A program made the position numbers and the translations under genes. Positions 1 to 59,926 of a stretch of 64,000 bases of DNA are shown here, piece by piece. The stretch's first letter is position 1, and every line of letters starts with the position of its first letter. Source of the stretch: a virus; the IMG/VR virus record IMGVR_UViG_3300043399_001092, positions 15,320 to 79,319 of that record; one strand, written 5' to 3'. The notes below the pieces were generated by a model. That model saw only the letters and a program-made list of their open reading frames with translations, was not told the origin of the DNA and did no database searches.

Positions 1-2924
1 GCAGATAGTTCGCCGGTGGATGACCAAACGTTGAATCGCTTAAAGCTATCAGCACCATTCTTGTAAATCTTGGGATCACCGGTAAATATAAAAGACTGTT
101 CAATGTTTCCGGCCAACGTGTTAACCGAATACAATCGAGAAATTACTTTAATAGCTTCTTCATAAATTTGATCCTGTTGTGTTTTAGGATCAAACTTGTA
201 TTTTTCAATTACCTCTTTTTTTACATCGTTCCAAATAGCGTTACTAATACCGACCGGCATAGAAACACCTCCAACTTCTACTTTTCTGTATATACCTGAA
301 CTCTTTATGTACTCATGCTCATTTTCAAAATGCTTCATTGCGCCCTTGTACAACTTATCGAGTTCTTGTTTGAACTCTTTTGAGTTTTTGTCTACTACAC
401 GTCCGTCCTTTACCAGGTTATCGTAGTTTACAAAAGCTCCAAAAAGACTATCCTCGTTTAAGGCTGTACTCAAATACTGAATATCAGAAGGACGATAAGC
501 TAAACTTTTTGCTTCTTCATAAAGATAATCTGCAAAAAACGACTTGAAAGAACTTTCAAATTCTTTAAGGCCAATGTCTTCTATCATAAGGTTTTTAGAA
601 ATCTTTCCGGCGGCTTTAGGTATTTCAAGTTGCACGGAGTAAAGAACACTTCTATCAGAGTGCTTTACCGCTTGGTAGTGAGTTACACTTGAATTTAGCA
701 ACTGGTTGATATAAGTAGAAAACAGGGTTGTTTCTTCAACCTCCGAAAGATCCTGTGCTACTGACTTGTCTTTTGTTTGAATACCTTGGTTCACGTTCAA
801 ACGTATCTTTCCTCCAGTCTGTAACATTCTTTTAAGCCAAGAACTGTTTGTAAAACCCCAAGATTCTAAATGCGGAAGTTTAGCTTTTAGTAAATTGAAC
901 TTCTGCGACAAAGAAAGATTGGGAGTTTTGTTTATTTCTTCAACAGCGGAATTTAACTCATTGACCATTTGGGTCATGTAGTTGTTCAGAGCAATACCGT
1001 AAACCCGTTCTCCCCCGGCTGTTACCATGGAGCTTTCTGTAATAACCCCTGTAGACAATATCTGATCAGCAATAATTTTAGCCGCCTTGTCAATAGGGAA
1101 AGTATTAAAAGCTGCGTTTGAAAACATTTTCAACAAGTCAGCTTTTTTAGCAGGATCACCTCCTATTTCTTTTACAACAGCATCGTTTATTATCTTAAGC
1201 TGATCACGAAATCTTGTTTTTTCCTCATCGTTTTGCAATAGGTCATAAAAGCTTCTAAGGCCAAAAGCATCTACGTACTTTTCACCAACCACCTCCTTTG
1301 CGGTAGTAAATCCTTTCATTATCTTGAAGAACTCTTCAACGCCGCCTTTTTCGTTAATCGAGTTTATCAATCGGGTTGACATTTCAGCAGCCGACTTCTG
1401 CAACCTTGCATATTTAGAGGAATCAATAATTTTTACATATCCGCCTTCGTACTCTGTCACCAACATGTTGTACCTGGTATTGGTGTACTGTACAATAAAC
1501 TGAATACGGTTGTACATGGCAGCATCTTTTAGGTTGCTACCATCTTTTCCTCCAAGTACTTGAATCAACTTTGAAATAGCCGGGCCATAGGTTTTGTTAT
1601 TTGACAGTTCCTCCAGTTTATTAAACACCGCTTCATCTGTAGCCAGTGTACCGGCAAGATTCTCGTTCAAGAAGTTGGAAAGCTCTACCCAGTTAAAGCT
1701 CCGGGTCATTCCATATCTTGAAGTGTCGTTTGTGTTCTCAATAGCCGACAGGATAATCCTAACCGCTGTCTTTACACGGGAGTTGGGATCTATTTCAAAA
1801 GACGCTTTGTCAAAAGCAGCCCCTTCACTTTGTCCATCTGGTGTAGTTTCCTCTACTTCCTTGTTTTCATCCGCCGGTTTTGTCAAAGGTTGTCCATCTG
1901 TATCCAGAACATCATCTTCGTTTTCTTGCACTTGAACAAAGCTAAGTTGCTTACTCAACAGTTCAGCATGTTGCTTATACTTGGCAAGTATCTTGCTCTT
2001 TGACTTGTCCGGTTGCATCAAGTCATTTTTCAATGCCAAGTAAAACCAAGCCTTGTCCTTTTCAAAAGAAGTGAGTTCGTTATACGACTTTCTTTTTTCA
2101 AGGTAATCAGTCAAACCAAGTTGCTTTTCAATCTCCTTCAGCGTTTTATTGACAACAACTCCTTCGTTCATTTCTTTCTTACCTTCAAGAATATCTGACA
2201 AGTTACCACCTGTCATAATACCTTCAATGTAGTTACGATGCATCAGTTCAATAACCGGAGCAAAGTCATCATATAGTACATCAATAGACTGACCTTTGAA
2301 CTCCAGTTTGATACTCTTTGATTTTTGAAAAGCATTGGTGACTGGTCTTGAAACATACCCTCCCTTGTTCATCATGTCATAGATACGCTCAATCTCCGAC
2401 GGCTTAGCTCCGGTGATATACTTGAGCATCTTGGCCAGTTGATCAAACAGTTTCTGGAGGAACGTCCTGGGCTTAGGTTCACCCAGGACAAAGTTTGCAA
2501 ACTCATCCGCAAAGTACTCCTCGATCAACACGTCTTCGTTATTACCGTACTCTGCTCGGTACGGTTCAATCAACTGTTTCCAGTTCTTGTTGGTCTTGAG
2601 TTCCCTTACAGCAGCCTCTCGTTCTTGTGCCGTTAAAGCCCCCTGCCATACCCTGTGGAAGGTTTCGTGGTACACGGTGGAGGTAGTAGCCAGGTCGGAC
2701 AAAAGAATCGTTCCATCGGCATTTAATTGACCTATAGCCCTATCTTCTATTAGCCCTTTGACAAACCCTATCTGGGAATCCGTCATCCCGGTTATGCGCC
2801 GTAGTTCTTCTTTGGCAAACGATTGATCAACCACCTTAGCGGATGCTATCTTACCATCCTTGATGAGTTTGAGCATTTCTCCACGGGAGTATTCGTTGCC
2901 ATTATAAACGTATCTACAAGACAT
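1..2924 (-). CDS. Large virion protein with N-terminal zincin metalloprotease motif, probable crAss-like virion RNA polymerase (3'-partial, runs off window start; absent from ORF track)
   Basis: ATG at 2924 overlaps the stop of the upstream giant gene. Manual translation MSCRYVYNG...TVYHETFHRVW...LIEEYFADEF gives HExxH plus a downstream Glu. The same frame near position 1 reads EQSFIFTGDPKIYKNGADSFKR, resembling my recollection of a motif in crAss-like virion RNAPs. Only the two ends were translated; the catalytic motif lies outside the window. Confidence 0.75.
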   Translation of the reverse strand, partial: MSCRYVYNGNEYSRGEMLKLIKDGKIASAKVVDQSFAKEELRRITGMTDSQIGFVKGLIEDRAIGQLNADGTILLSDLATTSTVYHETFHRVWQGALTAQEREAAVRELKTNKNWKQLIEPYRAEYGNNEDVLIEEYFADEFANFVLGEPKPRTFLQKLFDQLAKMLKYITGAKPSEIERIYDMMNKGGYVSRPVTNAFQKSKSIKLEFKGQSIDVLYDDFAPVIELMHRNYIEGIMTGGNLSDILEGKKEMNEGVVVNKTLKEIEKQLGLTDYLEKRKSYNELTSFEKDKAWFYLALKNDLMQPDKSKSKILAKYKQHAELLSKQLSFVQVQENEDDVLDTDGQPLTKPADENKEVEETTPDGQSEGAAFDKASFEIDPNSRVKTAVRIILSAIENTNDTSRYGMTRSFNWVELSNFLNENLAGTLATDEAVFNKLEELSNNKTYGPAISKLIQVLGGKDGSNLKDAAMYNRIQFIVQYTNTRYNMLVTEYEGGYVKIIDSSKYARLQKSAAEMSTRLINSINEKGGVEEFFKIMKGFTTAKEVVGEKYVDAFGLRSFYDLLQNDEEKTRFRDQLKIINDAVVKEIGGDPAKKADLLKMFSNAAFNTFPIDKAAKIIADQILSTGVITESSMVTAGGERVYGIALNNYMTQMVNELNSAVEEINKTPNLSLSQKFNLLKAKLPHLESWGFTNSSWLKRMLQTGGKIRLNVNQGIQTKDKSVAQDLSEVEETTLFSTYINQLLNSSVTHYQAVKHSDRSVLYSVQLEIPKAAGKISKNLMIEDIGLKEFESSFKSFFADYLYEEAKSLAYRPSDIQYLSTALNEDSLFGAFVNYDNLVKDGRVVDKNSKEFKQELDKLYKGAMKHFENEHEYIKSSGIYRKVEVGGVSMPVGISNAIWNDVKKEVIEKYKFDPKTQQDQIYEEAIKVISRLYSVNTLAGNIEQSFIFTGDPKIYKNGADSFKRFNVWSSTGELS

Positions 2925-5900
2925 TAGAAACAGTTTTTGGTTACTTGATTGGTTTCCTCAAGGTTCTTGAGTATCGATCGAGCTTGATCAACATCAATAA
3001 TCTTATTTGACTTCTTGTTTGATTCTGAAGGCTTTTCGGAAACTCCTATATAAACACTTGTTTTGTTGGCATGGTTTGTTACATTGTTTAAATAAGAATT
3101 ATTTACCGACTCTCCATCAAAAACTTTTTCTGCATCATTTCTTTGATTTGAATATATTAAAGGAATAGCTTCCAAAAATCTTTCTTTTGATTTTTCCGGT
3201 ATTTCGTTGACATATATATTAAGCAGCAAAGACATTGTTGCTTGAGCCGATTTTTCTATATCCAGTAAATCTTTAGATTCATTAATGCCAAAAGTGTTTC
3301 TGGTTTTTTGATCTACTGAAGAAAGTCTTATTTGAGTTACTCCAATAGAAGGATTTCTATCAATACCCAGCTCTATTGCTCCTAATTGAGCAATGTCGGT
3401 AACTCTTCCAAATTGACCTCTGAGTCCTCCATAACTACCAAAAGAAGACTCTTGCCCAAATATACCATAAGCAACTTTTGCAATTTGATTATAAACATCG
3501 TTTGAAACAGTCGGATACAGTTTCATTAACGCAGGTTTACTTTCAGACAATGTTTGCAAATACTCTTTTCCTTTTTCGTTTACATTAGCCGCTTTAATTG
3601 TTATAGGTATTGGTTCGTAGTTAGTAATTGTTCTATTGACATCTTTATCACTTGACTTAAATCTAATTTCGCCATCTTCAATTACAAATTCATTATGAGG
3701 ATTATCTGGAAGAATATAGACAACGCCCTCTTCGGCAAAACCGCTTTCCCAAAGATTTTCTAAATCGTCCAAGTTAAAATTTAAACACCCGTTACTTAAA
3801 CGATTATTTGAATAATCTTTATCCGAAATTGCAGTTCTTCTTGCCGCGTTTGTAACTTTATGAATAGCCATAGGTACTGCAATACCTCTTTCATTCTTTA
3901 AATAAAAAGCTTTATCTCCATGATAAGTTCCTCTTTTACTAACTGTAAAAATACCGGCTCCTGTTTTTTTATTACCTTCCGTCCAATTTGTTTTTGAACT
4001 GTATCCTTTTTTAAGATAGCTTACTCCATCTTTTTGATAAGTGGCTTCGTTTGCAGAAACTTGTTTTCCGTTTTTGTCAAAAAAGATAGACTTTAAAACA
4101 GTTTGTTCGTCTCCAACGTTTTCTCCAACTCCTATTTCATAACTGGTTATCAAAGAATCTCCTTCATACAAATGAGCGATCCCTACAGACTTATCTACAA
4201 TAATGTACTTGCCGGACTTGTTCTTTTGATAATTAGTAATTGCGTTTACGTTGCCAAGTTTATTTATTTCTTCTTGGTCAAGAAGTGTTTTTTCAAAAGA
4301 CTTTAGATTTTCAATATTTGCGGTCCGGTATGTAAAAACATTTTCTCCAGAAGGAAACCTAAAGCTTCCCGCTGTAAATAATGTAGAAATAATGAAAATA
4401 TTAAGAAGCAAACTTTTTATTTTGGCTGCAACTTTTTGAAGCAGTGTTCTTTCTTTACCTTGTGATTTTTCTTTTAGCTGCCGCAAAACTTCTTTTTTTA
4501 TAGCTTCTTTTACATCTTCTTTTTTAATATTTTCAGAATCAGAAATTTGTTGTATTTCAGATTCAGAAACGTTTTCTTCTATAAGATTATCTATTCCGCT
4601 AACATCAACCTGTTCTTCTTTTTGATTAACGGGTTCAGCAGAAAGCCCTTCAGGTTGAGGTGCTACCGGCTGCTCTTCAACATCAAGGTCAGACAAAGGA
4701 TCTATTTCATCCCGTTCCATCTTTTTTTCCTCTTCGCTTTTTTTCTTTATTACAAACTCCTCTTCTTCTTCTTGAGGTTCTGCACTTGGAGCAACACTTT
4801 TTGAAATAGCTGCTGCTGCATTTTGAGCATTGATGTTGTTCTCATCAACATCGTCCGGTATATCACCAGGCTCATCTTGTGACTTACCTTCAGTTGAAGG
4901 TGCAGCTTCTGGTGCTGCCGGGGCAGCGGCCGGAGGAGTAGGTTTTGGTTGATTTTCTACTCTTTTTTTGTAAGCCTCTACAAACTTTGCCTTTCTTTCA
5001 TCTTTGTTTTTGTTCCATTCATTTTTAGATTCGTATGTAGAAATATTTGGATAAAAAGTGCCAATAAAATAAGTGTAATCTGTAAATGGAAAAAAACCAT
5101 TTGGGTCATATAACTCAGTTGTTTCATCGTCGACAACAAGTGCCAAGTTGTCATTATACACTCTTATTAAAGGTCTATTTTTTTCAATGAAAAATACATT
5201 AATGTAAAATGTTACTGTATTACCCCCCGCGTTTATTTCAAACTTTAAGCCTTCAAAATTATCTCCATCTTTAATGTTTTCAATTTCTTGTTGACTAAAG
5301 CCAAATCTTTTTAATAAAAATTTTACACTATTAAGATTTTTCAAAGCCTTTTCAGAGTATTCTTTAAAATATTCATCTCCGTATTTTTCAGAAGTTTTAG
5401 CCTGTTCATTATTAACCGATTGTTCATTTTGACTACCTGTGACAGTAGATGTAGAAACAGGCGGTGTTGTGGGCGAAGACTGACTTGAAGTTTCAGTTTT
5501 TTTAGATGACTTTCTTTTGTTTGCTCTTTCTTTAATTACGCTGGTTAAGTTGGAAGGATCAATGACTAAGTTAGATTGAACAAAAGGCTTGTCTTTCTGA
5601 ATACGAGCTTCCAAGACATCGTCAAGAAGTTGTTTCGAATAGTTAACGTCTTTACGCAACTTGATTATTCCTTTTTCAAGAAAAGGAATATCTACGTTTT
5701 TACCAAGAAGTTTTTTGTTTACATAGAAATACCTCTTTTGTAAATGCTCCTTAAAGTTCTCAACCGCTTTCTTTTCTACCTCGGTTCTTTCCTTTTCTGG
5801 TTTGCGAAGTACCTCTGCGGATATACTGGAGGGTTTCTTATTAGCACCCTCCTTGTAATAAATAGTATCTCCCTTTTTGTACAGCTCAAATACGTTAGAA

Positions 5901-17026: not shown

Positions 17027-20000
17027 TATCGAGGAGTTTTAATAGTTGTAACTGAATTGATGTTAATTGCTGTTCCATAACTGGGAGTTTCCGGTTCATA
17101 CCACAACCGGGTTGCAGCCCATTTACCCCGTACAAAGTCCATATTGAACGCTGACGCGGTTGTATCTATGTTGGTAGGTACTAAGTCCACCCAACCATTT
17201 CCGAAGCCGTCAGCGTCAAAATACGACTGTATATCGGCCCATCCACGGGATACTACGGGAATACCGGTTGCCAAGTTGTAAAAACCACTGGTACGGTACT
17301 CATCCGCTACCCTCATTACATTCTTTGTGGTAGCACTGTAACCAATGTTTCCCCACGGGTTGGAAATTTGGTTCTGCAAAGATATATCCACTTTGCCGCT
17401 ATTCTGCTCTTCGTTGTACACCATAGCCCCATCAATGGTTCCATAGTTGTTGTCTTCTACCCATTGCCGGGTAATACCGTCCCAGTACTTGGTGTGACCG
17501 ACCCACTTAAGGGAATCCACATTGAACGTCTGAAAGCTCTTGGTAACGGTTTCTACAAACGATGGCCACATAGAACCGTAGAAACTCAAGAACGTATCTG
17601 TTCCATGTTTCCAAGCGTAGTCGTTGTGACGATCGTTGAACGTGTAGAAGTACATGTTGTCACTGTAACTGTACGATGGCATATAAGAGTGCCACGATAC
17701 CCAGGACTTGTTGAGGAACGAGTAGGACATCGTCCAACATCGGCTGATAAAGTAGTCCTTGTTGTCGAATCCAATGTCTTCATAACTTTCCCCGTTCCAG
17801 TGCGCAAATACACACTTATCCACATCGTAGTACAAGTTGTCCTCGATTACTTCAGCCGGAGGTTCAGCAGGTTTATACCCCAAAAACGCAAACAGGTTAA
17901 GTATTTCAAAGTCACGCTTCATTACTATCAGCCGTCTGAACCGAGGATCGTACACACACCGTACTCCTACACCTTTGACCGAGTTGTTGTTGACGCAGCA
18001 ATAGTCGTTAATACCGAACAACTGTAACTGTTGCAGCAACTTCATGGGAAGGTTATCCCTAAACCAGTTCTTGGTTCCTTGTGCAGATATTTCCTGTACA
18101 CCCTCAAAGAACTGAAACACCCGGCCGTCTTTTGCATCTATCCAACAGTGACCAAAGGGAGTATCGCAGATAGACTGAGGTTCATCTGCACCGGCATAAC
18201 CAAAGTTCCTACGTTGTACAGCCTCCGGCGGAATGGACAAGAAGTCACCAGTGCCGATGTACAGGTTGGTCTGGTCCAGTTGCATCTGTTGTGGGTTGGG
18301 AGCCATAAACCAAGTAGTGTCCTGGGTATGTACCAACATCCGGTTTTTATCGAACCACAGACCGGTTATATCACCCGTAGTAGCATCCAGATCAAGATAG
18401 TCGTTTGCAGCATTGACTCTCCAGTTCTCGGATACAGATTCATCCTGGGACTTGGGCGACCAAATGATACGGGTAGGATAAAGACCGTAACAGTCGGAAC
18501 AGTAGTTGATGAACCGGTTGTAGTTTGTTCCCGTATCTACACGATTGACAAAAGCGTAGTCTTGGTTCAACCTAAACTCTTCTTCAGCAGCATTGTCGTA
18601 ACGAGAAAGTATTTCAAAAGTGTCAAGGAAAAATCCTTGCAGATAAGGTATATTATTATCCGATTGAAGGACAAAATTTACCATCCCTTGCAATCCCACA
18701 TAGTGATGTGGAAAGTAAAACGAGTTAGGAAATATAGTTCCGTGTCGCAATTCAGAGTTAATGTCGCTTTCAAATCCAGAAAACATTACACCTCTCATTT
18801 GAGCACCTACTCCATAAGCCAAACTACTCTGTCCTTTTGGAGCAAGTTTCTTAAAGCCAAAAAAGTTTATGAAGCAATCACCGTTAAAAAATGAGTAGCT
18901 TTTGTCGCCAGTAACTTTTTTTAGAAGTATTGTATCTGTATTAAAAAGATCCGAGTTTACGTTTGGATTAAATTTCTTTACTGCCACATAGTGACACTTT
19001 TGATCTTGGTAAACTTGAGGATTTCCGTTAAGTCCTGTTGTATCAAGTATTACACAAGAGGCATTTGTAAAGTAATCAATGTCAGCGTTCAGTTTTGAAA
19101 AAGTAGCTGAATGATAAACATTTGACATGTTTAACGGATAGATGTCCGTACCTATCAAAAACCCTTGTGCATCGTAACTTCGAGGAGATACATACTTTGA
19201 CTCTTCGATATTTCTGTTGTACCACTCCTCGAACAAGTCCGGCTGTGTCCATTTTTCTTGTCCGAGAAACAAAGTCCACATTCCATCAGGGTGTCCATTG
19301 TCGTTAAATCCAACATACGAATAGTATTTGGTTCCCTCTCTTCTATAATAATACCCGCTATGACTTGAAGGATAAAACTTTTGTCGAGGCGAGTGAAAAA
19401 TTGTAATATTGAATTCTTCTATTTGTGGTCTTCCCACTTGAACTATATTTAGTCCCTCGGTTACAAAATAGTCGTTTGATGCAGTAACCGGAATTGCGCT
19501 TGAATACAAAGCTCCACTTATCGGGTTTGAAGGATAGGTGAAATTTATACTTGCCGGAAACATTGGAAATGCATCAGAGTAATACGGGTACTTTCCGCTA
19601 TCTGCTTCGGCAGCACCGTTTGAATAAACAGGACTTGGGTTATACCTTATGGCATGATATAAGATTCCTTTGTCTATAACCGTTGAATTTTCTGGAGTTC
19701 TTTTGGTAATTCCTATTTCATAATACTCGACATCATTTGCGTATTGTGCTGGAAATTGTACATTAAACACACAAAGACTTATCTTTTTCTTTTCACCAAG
19801 CTGTGTGTTGAAATCAAGTTTCCAAAGGTAATCTACGCAACCAAGATCGGGTACACGATGATGTCTAATATATTCTCCGGTTAAAGCATTGCCCCAGTAA
19901 TCTTCGCCCCAATAATCCTGCCCATCGCAAGATTCAACTTCGGGATATTTTTCTTCGCATTGATAGTAGGCCATTACATTTAAGTAATCACCGTTTGTAA

Positions 20001-36731: not shown

Positions 36732-39308
36732 TTACTTTTTCTTATCCTTGTTCAACATTTTGTGAATCTTCTCTCTTTCGATTTCGAGTTTTTTATCCAC
36801 CTGATCAAGTTTGCGTTTGTCGTTCTCCATTTGCTGGTAAATCTTCAACGCTTCTAGTTGATCGGGAACTCCGTCCTTGTCCATGTTCAAATCCTGTTGG
36901 AACTTGTACGTATCCAACACCTTGATTTCCATTTCCCGGTCTTTACGCAGTTGCTCCTGGATGATAATCTTATCGATTTCATGCTTCTGTTGATCCTCCC
37001 TGGATTCAATCTGCATCTGAACCATTTTCTCTTGGGATTCCATTTGAGCCTTCTGCATTTCTTCTTGACGCTTCTGTTGCTTCTCTTCCAAAAGCAACAG
37101 CTTACGATGGATTACATCCGGGCTTTCTCCCTCGGTAATCATCTTGATCAACTCACTAACCATAGAAGCCCCTTGTCCGGCGTTTTGCGCAATGGAAAAC
37201 ACCGACTGCACCATCATCTGCCGGTACTCCTGTTCAGAAGAACCTGTCTTCACGTACAGACCAATACCTTCATGGTCAAGGTTTTCGGGAGTAACCTCAA
37301 AGAGTTCCACCGTTCCATCAGGAAGAACATACGACAGCCACTGGTCTTGGGACATATCCTCGTTCATCTTCTGCCGGTAGTAGTACCTAAAGTTGTTCAA
37401 GAACGAATTGAGAACATGGGTCCACACTTCTTCGTGTTGATCGTAGAAGTATTCGGTAATAGCATAAGAAGCGGCCAGGTTTCTCTCGTTGTCTGTTGCC
37501 GTCAACTGAGAATTGGCTTGTGCTTCACGCTGGGGAGAAATACCCATAGCCAACGAAATCTCGGTGTTTACATAGTCCAACAACCGTTTGAGTGCAAACA
37601 GTTGATCGGCACTACCCAAGAAGTAACCATTGCTACCCGGTGAACGGGTGGACGGAGGAAGCGCACCAAAAGAGTTCTGAGAACCAGAGTAGAAGTTGTA
37701 ACCTTCTTTCTTAAGATACGTAAGCCACACCGAGAACTTATCCCGGATCTGGTTTCCTTCCATGTCCTGACCAAGACCGTCGGGAATCTGATCAACGTCA
37801 ATATCTTGAACAAATCCTTTGTACTTAGCCAATTCCTTGTTGATGACGTGGTTGATGTAGAAAGCCTGGAACTGGTAAGGAATAGCTCTCTCAACAAGAG
37901 AAACGCTTTCGGAGTTACGGTCACTAAACACCCGGCCTTTGTAAGACAGTTCAAACTTTCCGTAAGGATCGTTTACATCCACCGTTTGATTGGGAACCTC
38001 TCTACAGTTGACGTACACGTCACCCATCAAACGAGTAAGCTCATACTTCCAAGGAATCCACAGACGCTCCAAGACAAACGCCGTTTCTCCTTCCATCCAT
38101 TCCCAAACCTCAATCTCTTCACCGTGCTTAATAGCCGTAGACTTGGTAGCATCTTTGGGAACCTTGAAGTCCTCCGACAACACCTCGGTAATAGTCTTAC
38201 CGTACTCATCAATGTAGTTAAGGAAACAGACCTCTCGGAAAGCCTTAAACTCAATGTGGGTACACCAGATCAACGAACGATACCGGTCGCGGATGGTACC
38301 TGCTTGGGTCATGTGCGTACCTACAAACTTGGAAGCATTAGCTTCCCCTGGCCAATTTTCCCGGTACAACAGCTCATCCCAGTCGCTTCTAACGGGAACC
38401 GCGTTACCTCCACGAACATCAAACCGAGGGTCAGCAATAGTCGGTCCATTGGCATAAAGACCAAGACGCTGCATTTCCTCATCCGTCAGTTTATCACCGT
38501 ACTCCGTGATTACATCCACAGCGGTAATGGACCGGGTCGTGTAAACATAGTCACCCTTCTGGATCCACTTCTGGTTAGGGCTTTTGTGGAAACCGGTGAA
38601 CAAAGGGTTGCAAACTTCAATAACCGGTTTATCGCCTCTCCAACCTACGTAGATGATACACCGGTCGGCAATAACGATGTCATCCATCGTTTCCACTTTT
38701 TTGTCTTTGATCTCCATCGTCAACTCCGCCCACTTGAGTACCCGTTCATAGAAACGTTCCCACTCCGTACGGAAATTGGTGATGCCAAAACCCTCCGGTA
38801 AGTTCTGAGCCAAGAACTCCTGTTTAGCTTGTTCCTGTTGCTCCGGCGGCATTTTAGCTATATCCATCATTTGTGCCATCTGTTGCAACACTTTCTCCTG
38901 TACGTGTTTCTTGTACTCCTCCGTTTTAGACTTGATGTCATCGCTGCTAATGGGAACCACATGATGTCGCGGACGACGTTTGATAGCTCCATCCCGGAAG
39001 ATGTTGACCTTGTTGTGGATCATGTTGAAGGGAAGTATCTCCTCTTCAATAGCCACTGCATCCAGTTCACCAAGGGGATCACAGAAGCGTTTGAACTCTT
39101 CCTTGAATCCGTTGATGTTGTTGTTCACCAGGTCATAGCACCGCTTCAGTTTTTCGTACTCACGAATGATAAACGTCAGCGTAGGTACGGTATATCGAAC
39201 ATACCGTTTAAACCACTCCGCGTTATTATCGTATTTCTCTTTTTCCGAAACCTTTAGGCTTAATGCTGTAACCGGACGGGTGTCCGTGTTGTTTGAAAAT
39301 CCTACCAT
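36732..39308 (-). CDS. Portal protein
   Basis: 858 aa downstream of TerL; SLVER..PYQ and GISPQRE motifs and C-terminal D.DKDGVPD as in crAss-like portals. Confidence 0.88.
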   Translation of the reverse strand: MVGFSNNTDTRPVTALSLKVSEKEKYDNNAEWFKRYVRYTVPTLTFIIREYEKLKRCYDLVNNNINGFKEEFKRFCDPLGELDAVAIEEEILPFNMIHNKVNIFRDGAIKRRPRHHVVPISSDDIKSKTEEYKKHVQEKVLQQMAQMMDIAKMPPEQQEQAKQEFLAQNLPEGFGITNFRTEWERFYERVLKWAELTMEIKDKKVETMDDIVIADRCIIYVGWRGDKPVIEVCNPLFTGFHKSPNQKWIQKGDYVYTTRSITAVDVITEYGDKLTDEEMQRLGLYANGPTIADPRFDVRGGNAVPVRSDWDELLYRENWPGEANASKFVGTHMTQAGTIRDRYRSLIWCTHIEFKAFREVCFLNYIDEYGKTITEVLSEDFKVPKDATKSTAIKHGEEIEVWEWMEGETAFVLERLWIPWKYELTRLMGDVYVNCREVPNQTVDVNDPYGKFELSYKGRVFSDRNSESVSLVERAIPYQFQAFYINHVINKELAKYKGFVQDIDVDQIPDGLGQDMEGNQIRDKFSVWLTYLKKEGYNFYSGSQNSFGALPPSTRSPGSNGYFLGSADQLFALKRLLDYVNTEISLAMGISPQREAQANSQLTATDNERNLAASYAITEYFYDQHEEVWTHVLNSFLNNFRYYYRQKMNEDMSQDQWLSYVLPDGTVELFEVTPENLDHEGIGLYVKTGSSEQEYRQMMVQSVFSIAQNAGQGASMVSELIKMITEGESPDVIHRKLLLLEEKQQKRQEEMQKAQMESQEKMVQMQIESREDQQKHEIDKIIIQEQLRKDREMEIKVLDTYKFQQDLNMDKDGVPDQLEALKIYQQMENDKRKLDQVDKKLEIEREKIHKMLNKDKKK

Positions 39309-41589
39309 TGTTGGATAAAAAAGTTAAAGGGTTTTTTTTGTTTGCATCTTTCTCTATGATTACCTCTTGCTCTTTAAGAGCCAACGGCAATCCCATTAGT
39401 GCTGACACCCCGTCGTAGTTTTCGTCGTCGTTGATGTCAAACATAGCTATCTGCCTTACCGTGTACAAACACGGAAGCCGCTCAATATTCCTCTTTTTTC
39501 CGTCCGGCAACTCTGTTTCATCCAGTAACCAGTCGTTCAAGTATTGCACCAAATTCAACTTGGCTGTTTTGTTGCCCACCAAATACCCATGCTCTGAAGT
39601 CTTGGCTTCGTAAATCCTGGATCCCTTAATAGTCATCGGCCTCACCGACAACACATATTGCTTGTTCTTCTTGATAAACCAGTGCCTTACGTTTTCACCA
39701 CGGTTTGCTTCGTACCACAATCCACCCATAGGGTTTCCATAGTACTGCACCAGTTTCTCCAAGTTCTCGTTGTACTTATCCAAAGTCTCCGGCTTACCGA
39801 TATACGTAGCCATCAGCATATTCCCAGGATGCCCCTCCGGTAAGTACTTGGGATTGGCAAATACATAGGTTGCTCCCAATGATTCACCGCCCAAATTGGA
39901 TACATAGGGGTCATGTACAATAAAGTACAGGTCTTTCTTCTTCGGGTCAAAGAACTCCGGTTCGTTATAGATAACTACACAACCTTCACGTTTGTCCAGT
40001 TTATCGCTACCATCTACAAAGGGAGAGGTGATCGGTGTAAGCGTAAAGTCCGGGTTAGCTACAACACCACGGGGTGCATTGGGATCCCACACCAGTCTTA
40101 CCGTTTTACCCAAGTCCCTCCAGACATTCCGCTTCAACAACTCTTTCTCCCGTGCCCTTGCTTCTTCCCTCGGCAAGAAATTACCACCAGAGGTAATCCA
40201 CATGTGACTAATTAGCAACGGTGAGTGCATACAAGCTGCCCTATATCCCACAGGGTTGTCCTTCAGCTTATCCAATTTATCCCAAGCGTTCTTCTTTGCA
40301 GCTTCCAAGTCAGTGTTGCCGTTCTTATCCTTGAACGCCATGTCAATCATATAAGCCGGTAAGAACAACCCCGTGCGTCCCATTTGTCCCGTGTTCTCCA
40401 GTACATCCGGGTATGACACCAAGTCGTAGTCCATTGGATGTAAGAAAATCTGCTTGGCACCTTCTACCTTTTCAATATCACCAGACGTACCAAGACCTAC
40501 CAGTGTACCGGTTTTCCTTGCACCACGCTTAACCGTAAATTCGTTGGACGACCAAGCCACCGGTGCTTCTTCCAACAAACCAATTTCTTCGATGATGTTG
40601 TAGTTGTAACGACCAGAAGCAGCGGCTTCAGCATCGTCTTTGTAGTTTACGTGTTTGGCAAAAGACCCGGAACCAATATTTACGTCAATACCGTTGGAAC
40701 CTTTGACCAGCACCTGTTCCCTCCACGGGGATTTAGCGTTGTTCGGTTTTGTTTCCCCGGCCATGTTGCGGAAAAACGGACATGGTTCATAGTCATCCTC
40801 ACCCACTTTGCCCCATACCCCTAACTCCGGGTTGATAGCAAACTGTCGCATTTGTTCTTCCATGTACTTAAAGAACTGCGAAGACTTACCGGTGTTTGAT
40901 GCACCAATACAAATACCGGCTTCTTCTTGGTTCTGGTTGCGTTTCTTAGCCAAGTACTCATCATAGTTGGTTTCACCACAAAACAGTATCTCATGTAACG
41001 CAAAAGCAGACACCGTATAAGTCTTACCGGATGAACGCGCACCGAACAACATCGCGTTCTTAGGGGGATTCAAGTACAGCGGCCTACCGTAGTTCTTATC
41101 ATGTAGCCTCTTACAGTACTCCAAAGGATCCTCCCAACGCTTTAGCTCACCGTTGAGCTTAATACATGAAGTATGCAACTTGTCTTTGGGAAACTCCCCT
41201 TTCCAGGCTTTCTGTAACTCAAGGCTGCAGTTGGTTTCATCGTCATCAGCAAACCCGGAAAACCCTTTTGCCACCAAAAACATGTACGCTATCTCCCAGT
41301 CAACGTCACGAAGCATAGGTTTAGCTTTGGTAGAAACTTTCTCCCCGTCATCCCGGACCATTATCCAGAAGTTGATGTAGAAAAACAGCTTTGGCGGCAT
41401 AAACCTCCACAACCCAAAGTCGTTGTTCCAGAATCCCTCGATGCACCACCGGGAGTACTGCTGCCACAGATTGATGTACTTAGGTGACGATGGATGGATA
41501 CGGGGAATCTCTGGTACTTTCCAGTTGTCCGCGTTCTCGATCCGCGTCCACATCCGCTTCTCAGCATCCAATACAGTCCACTTTTCCAT
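39226..41589 (-). CDS. terL: Terminase large subunit
   Basis: Walker A-like GARSSGKT, Walker B IIEEIG, coupling motif GTSG, RNase H-like HDPY and YDGVSA. Confidence 0.92.
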   Translation of the reverse strand: MEKWTVLDAEKRMWTRIENADNWKVPEIPRIHPSSPKYINLWQQYSRWCIEGFWNNDFGLWRFMPPKLFFYINFWIMVRDDGEKVSTKAKPMLRDVDWEIAYMFLVAKGFSGFADDDETNCSLELQKAWKGEFPKDKLHTSCIKLNGELKRWEDPLEYCKRLHDKNYGRPLYLNPPKNAMLFGARSSGKTYTVSAFALHEILFCGETNYDEYLAKKRNQNQEEAGICIGASNTGKSSQFFKYMEEQMRQFAINPELGVWGKVGEDDYEPCPFFRNMAGETKPNNAKSPWREQVLVKGSNGIDVNIGSGSFAKHVNYKDDAEAAASGRYNYNIIEEIGLLEEAPVAWSSNEFTVKRGARKTGTLVGLGTSGDIEKVEGAKQIFLHPMDYDLVSYPDVLENTGQMGRTGLFLPAYMIDMAFKDKNGNTDLEAAKKNAWDKLDKLKDNPVGYRAACMHSPLLISHMWITSGGNFLPREEARAREKELLKRNVWRDLGKTVRLVWDPNAPRGVVANPDFTLTPITSPFVDGSDKLDKREGCVVIYNEPEFFDPKKKDLYFIVHDPYVSNLGGESLGATYVFANPKYLPEGHPGNMLMATYIGKPETLDKYNENLEKLVQYYGNPMGGLWYEANRGENVRHWFIKKNKQYVLSVRPMTIKGSRIYEAKTSEHGYLVGNKTAKLNLVQYLNDWLLDETELPDGKKRNIERLPCLYTVRQIAMFDINDDENYDGVSALMGLPLALKEQEVIIEKDANKKNPLTFLSNNGRIFKQHGHPSGYSIKPKGFGKREIR

Positions 41590-44988: not shown

Positions 44989-45333
44989 AGTAGTTAATTA
45001 CCGTTTCTTCAGAGATGCTCTCTCCCCCTGGCCGCGATTAGGTTTTAACCTCTTCGCAACTTGGAGGACCTTACATCCCCGGATGACCAACAAGTTTCAT
45101 CTACGCCGTACGTTCGTCTCTCGACCTCACCTCCAGGAGAACTCCAAAAGCTAAAATATCCCCAATAGCACATGTTCTCCCCCGTAGAATCCCCTCCATG
45201 TTGATCTCACAGCCTCCCGTTCATTATGTTTCTCCTAAGAGCATGAACATCTTGCTGCCGAGAGCCAAGGTCTTTACTGCATTTCGAATGGTATGTATCC
45301 CTGGCGAGTCGGATCGCTATCTTCATAGCAACG

Positions 45334-45341
45334 CAAATATA
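45334..45341 (-). promoter_or_regulatory. Bacteroidota -7 element (TATATTTG) heading the minus-strand operon
   Basis: Exact TAnnTTTG at the divergence point. Confidence 0.55.
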
Positions 45342-45510
45342 CAACCACTTTACTCTGTTTTTAGTTCCTGCACTCAAAAAAATTTTTCTGGAAATTTTTG
45401 GAATCCTACAAAAAATTTTTATGGTGAGTTGTGGATGGGGGTTTCCCCCACCATACCCCGGTATTAACGACAGGGGCGATATTGCCCCCGTCATTCAAAA
45501 TAACTTCGTT

Positions 45511-45948
45511 ATGGAGAACATTTTTCTTGGGTTTGAACCCGAAATCAACGAAGTGACCGGTGCCCTCGAGTGGCACGGTCGTGCTACAGTAGTAAGCGTT
45601 GACGACGAGGTCGTCGAACGCACAGCCAAAGACAATAGCGTAAAACGCTATCGTCGAATGACAATCTCTCTCCGCAACTTTGCGGGAGAGACCGTCCTTT
45701 CACCGTGCAACACGCCGGTGAAAGACACCGTGACCGAACCAAAGGTCGGTCAGGTGATCGACGTGCGGTATTCCTACCGCAACGGTCGGACCGATTTCAA
45801 TCGGTCCTTCCCGAAAGGCTCATCGTCTCGGTTAACCGAGAACGATATGCGCCAAGACCTTGCTAATCAGCATTTCGCTGATAAGCTCAAGGCCTTGAAA
45901 AACTTCACGGCGGCCGTCAAGGTTGAACCCACCGGAGCTACTGAATAG
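45511..45948 (+). CDS. First early gene; possible OB-fold ssDNA-binding protein
   Basis: ATG 45511; beta-rich with KVGQVIDVRY; biased codons; followed by a terminator. The product call is a guess. Confidence 0.6.
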   Translation: MENIFLGFEPEINEVTGALEWHGRATVVSVDDEVVERTAKDNSVKRYRRMTISLRNFAGETVLSPCNTPVKDTVTEPKVGQVIDVRYSYRNGRTDFNRSFPKGSSSRLTENDMRQDLANQHFADKLKALKNFTAAVKVEPTGATE

Positions 45949-45973
45949 TAGCTCTGGGGGTTCACCCCTTTTT
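45932..45973 (+). terminator. Tandem hairpins / terminator
   Basis: ccggagctact/agtagctctgg then gggg-ttca-cccc-ttttt. Confidence 0.65.
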
Positions 45974-45983
45974 ACCTTTTGAC

Positions 45984-46375
45984 GATAAGGGTGGTACCAA
46001 CCACGCACACCGTCAAACGTTGATGCAGTTACGTAAAAACTGCAAACCACCCACGCAAACTTCCCCGCAGGGGGTAAACATACACCTCTTCATTATGAAT
46101 TGTTGTGTGGAGTTTGCATAAGAAGAGTGAGAGAAAAATCACTATAATATAACCGGTTACTGCCCTTACACATGGCGCCGCAGTAAGTAATGTGTAACTG
46201 ACCGAATCAATAGTGTAGTGTTGCTTTAAATATGTATCTTTGGTCGCAAGACACTGGTACATAGCACTATTGATCGTAATGATTTACTGTTGGGTTAGCG
46301 ACCGACAGTTAGTATACCGTTTCGCTAACGGTGCGTGGCTTATCCTACTTAAACGGCCCAGAAAACGATAGTAGG
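45984..46375 (+). ncRNA. Large multi-pseudoknot structured RNA (unassigned family)
   Basis: No credible + strand ORF; closing helix gataag/cttatc plus about five crossing stem pairs (see findings). Confidence 0.7.
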
Positions 46376-46378
46376 CGG

Positions 46379-46446
46379 GAAACATTCGTCCAGTGGTAGG
46401 ACACCTGATTCTTCAGGAGGCAAGGGTTCGATTCCCTTATGTTTCG
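46379..46446 (+). tRNA. tRNA-like RNA (Glu-type D arm) with collapsed 4-nt anticodon loop
   Basis: Acceptor GAAACAT/ATGTTTC, D arm GTCC-AGTGGTA-GGAC, CCTGA-TTCT-TCAGG, T arm AAGGG-TTCGATT-CCCTT. Confidence 0.75.
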
Positions 46447-46478
46447 CATTTCTTTCACCATTTAATTCTTTTTCTGTC

Positions 46479-46697
46479 ATGGAAACAGTTTATGTTCAGA
46501 TAGATGCGACTGTCTCCTCCGATGAGCGTGGGGAGAAAGTCCATGCTATTATCACCTCTATGTCTGGAGAGGTGATAGTGGATGCGGTGTTTGGGGATTG
46601 TTTCTCCGCACCGACACCAGACGCTTCGGGTAAACCGAAGCAAGTCCGTCGTAGAGAGATCTACGAAGACTGGATTCAACGTTACGGAAAGCGTTGA
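46479..46697 (+). CDS. Hypothetical early protein
   Basis: ORF with pyrimidine/A-rich leader. Confidence 0.65.
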   Translation: METVYVQIDATVSSDERGEKVHAIITSMSGEVIVDAVFGDCFSAPTPDASGKPKQVRRREIYEDWIQRYGKR

Positions 46698-46700
46698 GTC

Positions 46701-46732
46701 CAAGGGGGCGCAGCATCCCTTTATCACACTGC
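46701..46732 (+). repeat. Intergenic repeat copy 1 (CAAGGGGG..GCAGCATCCCTTTA..ACTGC), small pseudoknot
   Basis: Near-identical to 47024-47058. Confidence 0.65.
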
Positions 46733-46762
46733 ATTTCTTTTCATCCTTAATACTTTTTTATC

Positions 46763-47079: not shown

Positions 47080-47370
47080 ATGCACACTATGGCATTTTTG
47101 ATGAATGCGTTCTCGTTGCAGATGGTCACGGAGTTTCCGTGTACTATCAGCATCGAGGAGGTCAACCAGCTCCCAGAGGGACTTGAGTCGGCCATTGGAC
47201 ATCAAGACACGGCTAACGTGTTGGGTGTTCCAATGAACCGGGTCAACGTGTCTCTGTCGAAGGGTGACGTTGCTTATGTAGCTCAGCTACAAGGCGGTCG
47301 TCTTCCTGAGGGGAGTACTACCTTACCTGAAGGCTTCTCTTTGAAGTTTTTCAAGGTAACGGTAGGTTGA
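47080..47370 (+). CDS. acrIII-1: AcrIII-1 / DUF1874 (STIV B116-like) cA4 ring nuclease
   Basis: NAFSLQM, SAIGHQDTA (catalytic His), NRVNVSL..GD and RLPEG motifs in family order. Confidence 0.85.
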   Translation: MHTMAFLMNAFSLQMVTEFPCTISIEEVNQLPEGLESAIGHQDTANVLGVPMNRVNVSLSKGDVAYVAQLQGGRLPEGSTTLPEGFSLKFFKVTVG

Positions 47371-49728: not shown

Positions 49729-49756
49729 GGGCCGTGTAACAGCGGCCCTTTTCTTT
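49729..49756 (+). terminator. Intrinsic terminator
   Basis: gggccg/cggccc followed by ttttcttt. Confidence 0.6.
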
Positions 49757-49774
49757 CACCTTTAATCTACAAGT

Positions 49775-52549: not shown

Positions 52550-53074
52550 TTATGTGAATTTCGGCTGATCAGGAAAGACTAAAGTTACTAAACCATTATC
52601 AAATTCCCAATGGCAATTTGGACAAAGTTGAACAACGTTGCTTTCAGCGTTTACTTCTTTTAATTTTGCTGTTGGCTCAAAGGAGCTTAAAGGTTTTATG
52701 TGCGCTAACTCAACATGCTTTGAATATCCGCATATATGACAAGGCAAAGAAAGTTTATCTTTATGCCAACTTCTACAAAGACCTCTAATGTGAGCAAATT
52801 TACTTGACGCATGAAGTCTTTTGATACAATTCCGATTGGTATAATCTGCAAGGGTTAATTCGAGTAAACTTCTTTTTCTTCCTTTTAAGTAATCTTGAAA
52901 ATGGTATTCACAAAGTTTGCTTTTGTAATTTCGAACAACTGATTCGCACTGAGAACATTTTTTAGAAATCTTTCTTTTTGGAATCTTGTTGCTTTGTTTT
53001 GCAGCACAACTTTTTGAGCAAAACTTTGGATTTGAGGTTTCAATACCGCAATGAAAACAGTTTTTAGTAATCAT
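52550..53074 (-). CDS. HNH homing endonuclease with N-terminal Cys zinc-binding motifs, antisense within the intron
   Basis: CHICG...ELAHIKP...N...NVVQLCPNCHWEFD; N-terminal CxxC...CSKSC. Confidence 0.88.
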   Translation of the reverse strand: MITKNCFHCGIETSNPKFCSKSCAAKQSNKIPKRKISKKCSQCESVVRNYKSKLCEYHFQDYLKGRKRSLLELTLADYTNRNCIKRLHASSKFAHIRGLCRSWHKDKLSLPCHICGYSKHVELAHIKPLSSFEPTAKLKEVNAESNVVQLCPNCHWEFDNGLVTLVFPDQPKFT

Positions 53075-53172
53075 GTTAATCGTGAGTTGATTTAAGAAAT
53101 TAAGTTAACGCAGAGACTGTACGCCGAACACCCTACCGAATAATGTCGAGGGTGAAGAGACAGTCCAGACCA

Positions 53173-53180
53173 CAAATATA
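53173..53180 (-). promoter_or_regulatory. Candidate -7 promoter element (TATATTTG) for the antisense HNH gene
   Basis: Exact TAnnTTTG about 100 nt upstream of the HNH ATG, inside the intron 3' region. Confidence 0.55.
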
Positions 53181-53324
53181 CGAAACTTTTTCGAAAAACA
53201 CCTTTTTTCCGAAAATAAAATTTAGTTCGTATAGCGGTGAAAACCGTAGTTGGTAAGCTAAGCAGTAAGTTACTGGTTCGAGCCCAGTCGGGGTCACATT
53301 TATTCACACTTAAACACTATTTGT

Positions 53325-54237: not shown

Positions 54238-54311
54238 GGCCGGGTGGTGAAATGGTATGACGAGACTGCTTAACAGCGGTAGAGTTGTAGGTTCGAGACC
54301 TGCCCCAACCA
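54238..54311 (+). tRNA. Degenerate tRNA-like RNA with 4-nt loop in the anticodon arm
   Basis: T arm GTAGG-TTCGAGA-CCTGC, D-like GTGAAATGGTATGAC, ACTGCT-TAAC-AGCGGT; acceptor has two C/A mismatches. Confidence 0.6.
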
Positions 54312-54588: not shown

Positions 54589-54657
54589 AGGCTGTTTGCT
54601 ACAATAAGTTCTGGTCATTATCCCGATCACTATTATTCACACTTTAAATCTTTTACC

Positions 54658-54838: not shown

Positions 54839-54938
54839 GGCCGGGTGGCAAAGTGGTTAAGCACTGGTAGCAGATTCAAGAGATAGCATCAAATGTGTAA
54901 CTCCCAGAAGGACACTGGTTCGATTCCAGTCCCGGCCA
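54839..54938 (+). tRNA. tRNA-like RNA with 36-nt insert replacing the anticodon loop
   Basis: Perfect acceptor GGCCGGG/CCCGGCC, T arm ACTGG-TTCGATT-CCAGT, D loop with GG, CTGG/CCAG enclosing 54868-54903. Confidence 0.75.
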
Positions 54939-55081: not shown

Positions 55082-55207
55082 GGTCGGGTGGCGGAATTGG
55101 TAGACGCAGTTCGTAAGTGAGTAATAGAGTAAGCGTGGAAAATAGCACTACTCGGCTTATCGCCTCACAACGGGCTCCAATCACAGGTTCGAATCCTGTC
55201 CTGACCA
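55082..55207 (+). tRNA. tRNA-like RNA (Leu-type D arm) with ~55-nt structured extension of the anticodon arm
   Basis: Acceptor GGTCGGG/CCTGACC, D arm GCG-GAATTGGTAGA-CGC, T arm ACAGG-TTCGAAT-CCTGT; GTTCGT/ACGGGC, GTGAG/CTCAC and GAGTA/TACTC nested stems. Confidence 0.78.
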
Positions 55208-55573: not shown

Positions 55574-55602
55574 CCAGTTTCATCAACCTTTAATTTATTA
55601 TT

Positions 55603-59902: not shown

Positions 59903-59926
59903 TTTCATCACACTAAAATTTATCTT

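Follow-up and report, generated by a model that had tools for sequence, protein, structure and literature searches.

The 530-base gap that separates the first two rightward open reading frames (ORFs) of a crAss-like phage from the environment (freshwater) is a genuine modular region of structured RNA, matched by no catalogued family, and carries a tRNA mimic that cannot decode. This gap (45949-46478 of the window, by which we mean the whole 64 kb stretch analyzed, itself part of the 79-kb IMG/VR virus record IMGVR_UViG_3300043399_001092) is non-coding, holds a local excess of helices with a strand bias, and is built of modules that are distributed as a mosaic among relatives; some of the modules are conserved above the neighboring gene, and small hairpins vary in ways which preserve pairing. 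The reading we prefer, and in which our confidence is about even, is that the gap comprises a chain of small, independently evolving folded RNA modules which ends in a non-decoding tRNA shape, and not one ornate RNA.

Few known viruses are as abundant as the crAss-like phages, whose early program is poorly understood. The locus provides a case from freshwater where conservation is higher in small folded modules than in the neighboring protein gene and a non-decoding tRNA shape lies exactly at the boundary with the next message, and it raises the idea that tRNA-type punctuation of early phage transcripts may release stable structured RNAs. It also corrects an over-reading, in that the large five-pseudoknot RNA proposed in an earlier note on this DNA is unsupported by the evidence.

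The large terminase (39226-41589, minus strand) and the portal match crAss-type families. By terminase, the closest GenBank relative is Cellulophaga phage phi14:2 (28% identity, 94% coverage), followed by gut crAss-like and Flavobacterium phages. Structural genes are read leftward, and a long run of small genes is read rightward from ~45.4 kb. The features in and around the gap are as follows.

45511..45948, + strand: first rightward (early) ORF, ~145 aa, start placed by alignment A1
45956..45974, + strand: intrinsic-terminator-like hairpin GGGGG-TTCA-CCCC plus T run, from a terminator scan, 8 nt past the stop codon
45984-89/46339-44 and 46001-08/46331-38, + strand: proposed closing helix, present in the sequence, unsupported as significant
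45984..46127, + strand: module A, local hairpins and two long competing helices, fold z -3.0
46127..46150, + strand: conserved box, 5-bp hairpin AGTGA/TCACT and then ATAATA, in the window, G002, X4 and X5
46154..46197, + strand: module C, stem TTACTGC/GCAGTAA crossed by TTACACAT/ATGTGTAA, loops of 2, 6 and 3 nt
46204..46276, + strand: module D, long hairpin, fold z -3.7
46286..46333, + strand: module E, 8-bp hairpin 46286-93/46302-09, fold z -1.9
46345..46378, + strand: weak linker hairpin CCTACT/AGTAGG, fold z 0.03, equal to the shuffle level
46379..46446, + strand: tRNA-shaped element, Rfam tRNA 60.1 bits, ARAGORN tRNA-???
46449..46481, + strand: G-poor leader TTTCTTTCACCATTTAATTCTTTTT..ATG of the next gene, a motif found before most early ORFs of the window and G002
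46479-46697, + strand: second rightward ORF (the next gene), preceded by the G-poor leader
47080-47370, + strand: AcrIII-1-like ORF, 96 aa, PF08960 (STIV_B116-like), 34.6 bits

The true start of the first rightward ORF is probably M31 of a 175-aa ORF beginning at 45421, since all three metagenomic homologs (P0001-P0003, alignment A1) start at that Met; the ORF so defined has no family match in Pfam or PHROG. The terminator-like hairpin separates this upstream gene from the RNA region, and the changes listed for it in two relatives (X4 and X5, described below) fall in the loop, the 5' flank and the T run, which is lengthened, with none in the stem. Coding within the gap is excluded on both strands, because single-base insertions in relatives break the frames; in addition to these insertions, the relatives show a replacement of 61 nt by 24 nt (a 37-base indel). 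A 77-aa minus-strand ORF (46029-46262) was rejected on these grounds, as indels in both X4 and X5 break its frame, and no ORF inside the gap carries the leader motif of the early genes. Further downstream, PF08960 is the AcrIII-1 ring-nuclease family, which places an anti-CRISPR-type gene ~630 nt from the RNA region.

Local helices and pseudoknot geometry

All of the complementary segments from which the earlier note assembled its structure are present in the sequence, each in its place. Within 45984-46344 there are 8 stems of at least 8 bp as compared with 1.69 ± 1.33 in 300 dinucleotide shuffles (p < 0.004), an excess where the earlier note had said that equal stem density in shuffled sequence would count against any structure, and 16 stems of at least 7 bp as compared with 6.25 ± 2.5. 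Compact crossing stem pairs number 2 versus 0.06 in shuffles. The stem density of the region lies in the top ~1% among 1061 sliding 361-nt windows of the 64 kb, although a few coding stretches equal it; the direct repeats CCACGCA and GCAAAC, both contained in module A, inflate the stem counts and give alternative pairings.

These properties also differ between the strands. The minimum free energy of the + strand (-110.5 kcal/mol, z -3.6) is better by 9 kcal/mol than that of the - strand (-101.6 kcal/mol, z -2.2), and stems containing G-U pairs number 18 on the + strand (11.6 in shuffles) versus 4 on the - strand (11.5 in shuffles), a difference that is ~2.3 sd from the genome-wide spread (sd 6) and is supportive only, because that spread is wide. 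Taken with its non-coding nature, the data support a region whose + strand is rich in RNA-type helices beyond chance.

Module A contains local hairpins at 46011-16/46020-25, 46024-30/46038-44 and 46062-66/46070-74, together with the competing long helices 46055-63/46109-17 and 46086-97/46117-27. It is followed by the box, AGTGAGA-loop-TCACTATAATA, whose hairpin has a variable loop of 7-9 nt that begins with GA. Module D consists of an 11-bp base (46206-16/46264-74) and an inner 8-bp stem (46231-38/46256-63), and its crossing stem (46217-22/46250-55) leaves a 0-nt loop. In module E the entire hairpin loop could pair with 46322-29, again with 0-nt loops, and an alternative hairpin exists at 46315-21/46327-33. 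The linker hairpin that follows would be the 5' leader of the tRNA-like element.

The earlier note had read these crossing segments as five tandem pseudoknots. Their loop lengths (first/second/third) are 3/0/3 for knot A, as read from the sequence, and 22/11/0, 2/6/3, 8/11/0 and 0/0/12 for knots B, C, D and E, as obtained from a geometry computation; an H-type pseudoknot was taken to need a minimum of 1-2 nt in its first and in its third loop, so that each can span a groove. The third loop of knots B and D and the first and second loops of knot E have zero length, so these three are predicted to be unable to form in full, since the first and third loops of a classical H-type knot must each cross a groove, and their stem pairs look like mutually exclusive alternative pairings. 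The 4-bp stem of knot A competes with the hairpin 46011-16/46020-25, which is the pairing backed by variation in a relative. An H-type fold is plausible, on this modeling, only for knot C, whose loops could permit it, and for a trimmed knot E.

Variation and distribution of the modules

Terminase-anchored scans of IMG/VR and of metagenomes identified five viral and two metagenome loci, among which only one, G002, reached the early arm. Its terminase is 91% identical to that of the window, and synteny extends to ~45.5 kb and then breaks down. Across the gap only 74 nt can be aligned with G002 (46126-46197, 83% identity), an island that consists of the box plus module C and sits there in another context, behind a 27-aa hydrophobic ORF; no tRNA gene was called in the G002 loci. 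In the G002 copy of module C the terminal pair of the second stem, T46173-A46190, is lost by deletion of both partners and one inner pair is mismatched.

Further relatives were obtained by aligning Logan contigs of four sequencing runs to the region. The X4 contig is near-identical to the window over 46075-46132 and 46194-46271, and the intervening 61 nt are replaced by 24 nt that retain the box (TACTTACTCACTATAATAAATAGG) and lack module C, which is precisely absent. An X5 contig is ~89% identical over 45915-46121 (module A), and its upstream ORF is of the P0003 type, with ~47-50% protein identity; for module C, no change is listed in X5. Another X5 contig holds module A, the box and module C and then runs into unrelated sequence, and a second X5 strain holds module D after a joint that skips 46122-46198, with unrelated sequence past 46290. 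Thus the modules occur in at least four combinations: A, box and D in X4; A, box, C and other sequence in X5; D and other sequence in the second X5 strain; and other sequence, box, C and other sequence in G002. The box (L007 ~1500-1525 in G002) is the sole piece present in all four variants, module D is carried by X3, X4 and the second X5 strain, and module E was seen in part (46286-46320) in the near-identical strain X3. Modules A and box plus C are conserved above the neighboring gene and the flanks. The tRNA-like element was seen adjoining the modules in no relative, a result to be read with the coverage of X4 and X5, which omits 46339-46405 (most of the element) and so says nothing on its absence there; in one X4 contig a matching leader motif is preceded by sequence other than the tRNA-like element.

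Substitutions among these relatives come from two or three short metagenomic contigs with differences listed in part, and 20 are listed for X5 within 45984-46344: seven lie in local stems, all of them pair-preserving, seven in loops or linkers and four in a strand of the closing helix. For example, the hairpin at 46011-25 carries three transitions in X5 with pairing kept through G-U, the CCCC-GCA-GGGG hairpin shows a double compensatory change (C46065>G plus G46071>C) that is shared by X4, and G46074>A, also shared by X4, converts a U-G pair to U-A. In the second X5 strain, A46232>G keeps a module D pair as G-U. Changes in the long module A helix of X5 go both ways, as one pair survives C46056>U whereas another is disrupted by A46057>U. 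This pattern points to selection that would act on local RNA hairpins and not on a global fold.

Searches beyond these relatives gave little. A blastn search of GenBank phages with the region had no match, nor did IMG/VR scans with the flanking ORF, its alignment, a T-arm 28-mer, or module A and D words; pattern scans with module C plus the box returned G002 and chance matches only, and scans of genome collections found no homolog. No RNA run was among the sequencing runs listed for the stretch, and the sole run labeled RNA-Seq covers only 45219-45358 and is probably DNA.

Several side observations concern the same relatives. Between the two arms of the genome, a divergent region (45094-45312 and 45377-45435) is 77% identical to G002, above the adjacent early genes, and holds two direct A6T5-type repeats (AAAAAATTTTT.TGGA); it is a candidate early-promoter or origin region. 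G002 itself contains a T-arm plus acceptor 'minihelix' ending in CCA after the terminator of its first early gene, a DUF805b motif (RF02914, 37.3 bits versus 35.6) in the gap behind module C, and a further ~760 nt stretch without an obvious gene (coordinates of these features: L007 ~1080-1170 and 1255-1337; L003 4787-4818, minus strand; L003 reverse strand ~18640-19400).

Alternative explanations can be weighed against this record. The earlier note proposed one ornate RNA of ~360-460 nt, with a closing helix around about five pseudoknots, that is released by RNase P and acts on the ribosome or as a defense decoy. All of its helices exist, a helix joining the ends is typical of stable RNAs, the excess of compact crossing pairs and the z of -3.6 for the global fold are in its favor, an AcrIII-1-like gene lies 630 nt downstream, and the equivalent gap of phi14:2 contains a tmRNA, an RNA with a ring of pseudoknots. 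However, the closing helix is at chance level, since its duplex energy of -24.6 kcal/mol compares with -23.5 ± 3.3 for the best long-range duplex in shuffles and is matched by 37% of them; in X5 its outer 5' strand is changed at four of six positions, and the 3' partner was seen in no relative. Knots B, D and E have 0-nt loops, knot C is missing from the near-identical X4, the modules recur in other contexts and combinations, and the whole unit was found in no relative seen. A single ~360-nt RNA whose pieces are shuffled, lost or replaced independently is therefore an improbable account. The mosaic could instead be that of a functionless spacer, in which recombination scars and decaying fragments accumulate in a fast-evolving mosaic early region and the helices are by-products of internal repeats and palindromes; module gain and loss between close relatives, the repeats that inflate the stem counts and the existence of some coding windows with similar stem density would all be accommodated, but better conservation of module A and of box plus C than of their flanks, substitutions that spare stems and include a double compensatory change, and the stem excess over dinucleotide shuffles make this the least probable of the explanations considered.

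The conservation of the box admits a further reading, which we regard as unlikely though worth keeping in mind, in which the region controls transcription and the box AGTGAGA-N-TCACTATAATA is a promoter or other RNA-polymerase signal, recognized either by a phage polymerase or in the form of a DNA hairpin. The layout would then be the 3' trailer of the first gene followed by a unit from ~46155 that contains module C, the tRNA-like element and the downstream genes. The box alone is kept in four of four variants with a freely variable loop, a strong hairpin stands before it in the window and likewise in G002, the region comes after a terminator, and TATAAT is present in the box without mismatch. 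Three of the four variants (window 46134-46148; L007 1505-1524 in G002) have a box that reads ACTCACTATA, identical to positions -10 to -1 of the T7 class III promoter, a likeness that serves as a lead only. On the other hand, the box occurs once per genome, which is unlike a promoter used repeatedly, the promoter scan of the region yielded no sigma-70-type site, and no host-type promoter was recognized for the gap. Nor does the box fit the Bacteroidota-type TTG-N20-TAnnTTTG promoters that can be read by eye upstream of phi14:2 g070, g075 and g108, three genes given as middle genes whose promoters have been mapped (Drobysheva et al., bioRxiv 10.1101/2020.03.07.982082). The window shows no enrichment of TAnnTTTG, and the copy at 46235 has no correctly spaced -33 TTG. 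A T7-like RNA polymerase (PF00940) was not found in the 79-kb record, which is perhaps incomplete, in a search that matched no control genome either. The pair-preserving G-U changes, in addition, favor structure at the RNA level over structure at the DNA level. The box could be a polymerase signal or a processing site.

The tRNA-shaped element and the next message

The tRNA with a collapsed anticodon described in the earlier note is real. The element at 46379-46446 scores 60.1 bits against the Rfam tRNA family (RF00005, threshold 29), its cloverleaf has a minimum free energy z of -2.8, and it has tRNA-like parts that include a 7-bp acceptor stem, a D arm and a T arm with a TTCGA loop. The anticodon arm, CCUGA-UUCU-UCAGG, has 14 nt instead of 17 and forms either a 4-nt loop closed by 5 bp or a 6-nt loop closed by 4 bp, and ARAGORN reports 'tRNA-???' with a two-letter anticodon (tc). 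The element is unable to decode, because it lacks a 7-nt anticodon loop with a 3-nt anticodon. Its acceptor stem (GAAACAU/AUGUUUC) has an A3-U70 pair, and neither G3-U70 nor an encoded CCA is present.

The leader of the next ORF (46479-46697) starts 3 nt past the discriminator base of this element. Nearly all of the small early genes have a leader of the form TTTCTTTCACC.TTTAAT....ATG and lack a Shine-Dalgarno sequence, which is what a Bacteroidota host would lead one to expect, and the G-poor leader is probably a translation-initiation signature of the phage and its host. Leaders of the form TTTC(T)TCAC(C).TTTAA(T)....ATG are found at 46449-46478, 46731-46762, 49750-49774, 53294-53324, 54627-54657, 55578-55602 and 59903-59926, among others.

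Downstream lie four further tRNA-shaped elements (53224-53296, 54238-54311, 54839-54938 and 55082-55207), whose anticodon arms are abnormal or interrupted; three of them have Rfam scores of 22.9-41.6 bits. The next gene's leader motif comes directly after each of the elements ending at 46446, 53296, 54311 and 55207; the one at 54839-54938 has no leader directly after it, and a 131-nt gap separates it from the next tRNA-like element. The long-armed members recall the YrlA architecture, but the 79-kb record has no Ro/TROVE protein. A low-scoring Group I intron match (53052-53184, 17.5 bits, E 0.23) upstream of the tRNA 3' half at 53224-53296 is compatible with the intron-split tRNA-Arg that the earlier note had suggested.

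In our preferred reading, that of a chain of small modules, the gap would be the non-coding part of an early rightward transcript, and the modules would be hairpins, the AGTGAGA-loop-TCACTATAATA box and the small pseudoknot C. Host tRNA-processing enzymes would cut at the tRNA-shaped element, with RNase P acting at its 5' end and RNase Z, or an equivalent, immediately 3' of the discriminator base. Cleavage would free the structured upstream RNA as one or several stable species, as well as a downstream message that starts exactly at its ribosome-loading motif. We infer this tRNA punctuation from the 3-nt distance between the element and the next leader and from the same arrangement at 53296, 54311 and 55207, and RNase P release at the tRNA-like tail, which the earlier note had proposed, is plausible by analogy. 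Transcription, cleavage and stability are likewise inferred, and the RNA may have a downstream role, such as that of a decoy, a regulator or an mRNA stabilizer. In a more ambitious version, to which we assign a low probability, 45975-46446 would be one abundant early precursor in which the tRNA mimic recruits RNase P to free a stable multi-domain non-coding RNA with an anti-host role, for example as a decoy near the AcrIII-1-like gene. If true, this would be a phage counterpart of MALAT1-mascRNA processing.

Known RNAs and the early RNAs of phi14:2

The earlier note could place the region in no known large RNA family, and this holds: a cmscan of 45700-46700 with all 4227 families of Rfam 15 and permissive filters gave the tRNA match and otherwise only chance-level matches. 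GOLLD, ROOL, HEARO, OLE, raiA, ribozymes, CRISPR repeats and Y-RNA-like families were considered and had no Rfam match. tmRNA (RF00023 and permuted forms) was also rejected, as none was found by Rfam in 45700-46700 (E values to 10) or across 44-64 kb (E values to 1), and none by ARAGORN, although the same tools find the tmRNA of phi14:2, which served as a positive control (Rfam 46 bits versus a cut-off of 47, E 7e-16; ARAGORN tag GSSVQKLAMVA*).

The window does share with tmRNA a tRNA-like part beside a pseudoknot-rich RNA in a phage early region. However, its tRNA-like part is contiguous at 46379-46446 and lies outside the proposed ring, it has A3-U70 and not the G3-U70 alanine identity of tmRNA, and no tag frame is kept in the variants, because loop variants at the box change its length (6, 7 and 7 nt, and others). 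Comparison with mascRNA-menRNA (RF01684) gave 26.3 bits versus a cut-off of 42.5, so the element is not a member, and by analogy the resemblance would be one of function (an anticodon-poor tRNA shape). A non-decoding tRNA shape 3' of a non-coding RNA is likewise a feature of MALAT1/MEN-beta-mascRNA, mitochondrial tRNA punctuation and plant t-elements; these systems are eukaryotic or organellar, whereas the window is from a phage, where cleavage by RNase P and RNase Z, which would set the 3' end of the RNA before the element and the 5' end of the one after it, is proposed by analogy only.

Other viruses provide related arrangements. The 3' UTRs of tobamoviruses and tymoviruses combine an upstream pseudoknot domain with a tRNA-like structure, in the RNA genomes of plant viruses with aminoacylatable 3' ends. 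The window resembles them in that small pseudoknots or hairpins stand in series immediately 5' of a tRNA-like structure, but its element is internal to a DNA-phage transcript and lacks CCA, and most of its knots are doubtful. The tRNA cluster of phage T4 includes the stable non-tRNA species 1 and 2 (rnaC/rnaD), which lie among functional tRNAs. As is proposed for the window region, these small structured phage RNAs are transcribed together with tRNA-type substrates and matured alongside them; a relation in sequence is not expected.

The closest parallel by position is in phi14:2. Early long non-coding RNAs are made from its g004-g005 and g005-g006 gaps, which are transcribed rightward from the earliest time point and at levels above most genes, and whose function is unknown (Drobysheva et al., bioRxiv 10.1101/2020.03.07.982082). 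The window gap follows the first rightward ORF as these ORF-free gaps lie in the phi14:2 early arm, so by position the locus adds a further case to the early non-coding RNAs known from crAss-like phages. Comparison of the window with phi14:2 1201-4700 by blastn (word size 7) and nhmmer gave chance matches only. The two differ in that a phi14:2 gap is partly a detectable tmRNA, whereas the window gap contains none.

Two observations concern phi14:2 itself. Its tmRNA gene (L014 4031-4502, NC_021806.1) lies in the g005-g006 gap, for which the literature reports no more than an early 'long non-coding RNA' of high abundance (Drobysheva et al., bioRxiv 10.1101/2020.03.07.982082). In addition, its other early gap shares ~100 nt, at ~75% identity, with an intergenic stretch of 143 nt in the Cellulophaga phages phi4:1 and phi17:2 (Lightbulbvirus), at L014 3256-3364, L019 601-700 and L020 601-698, and this looks like a small RNA module shared between unrelated phage families on Cellulophaga baltica.
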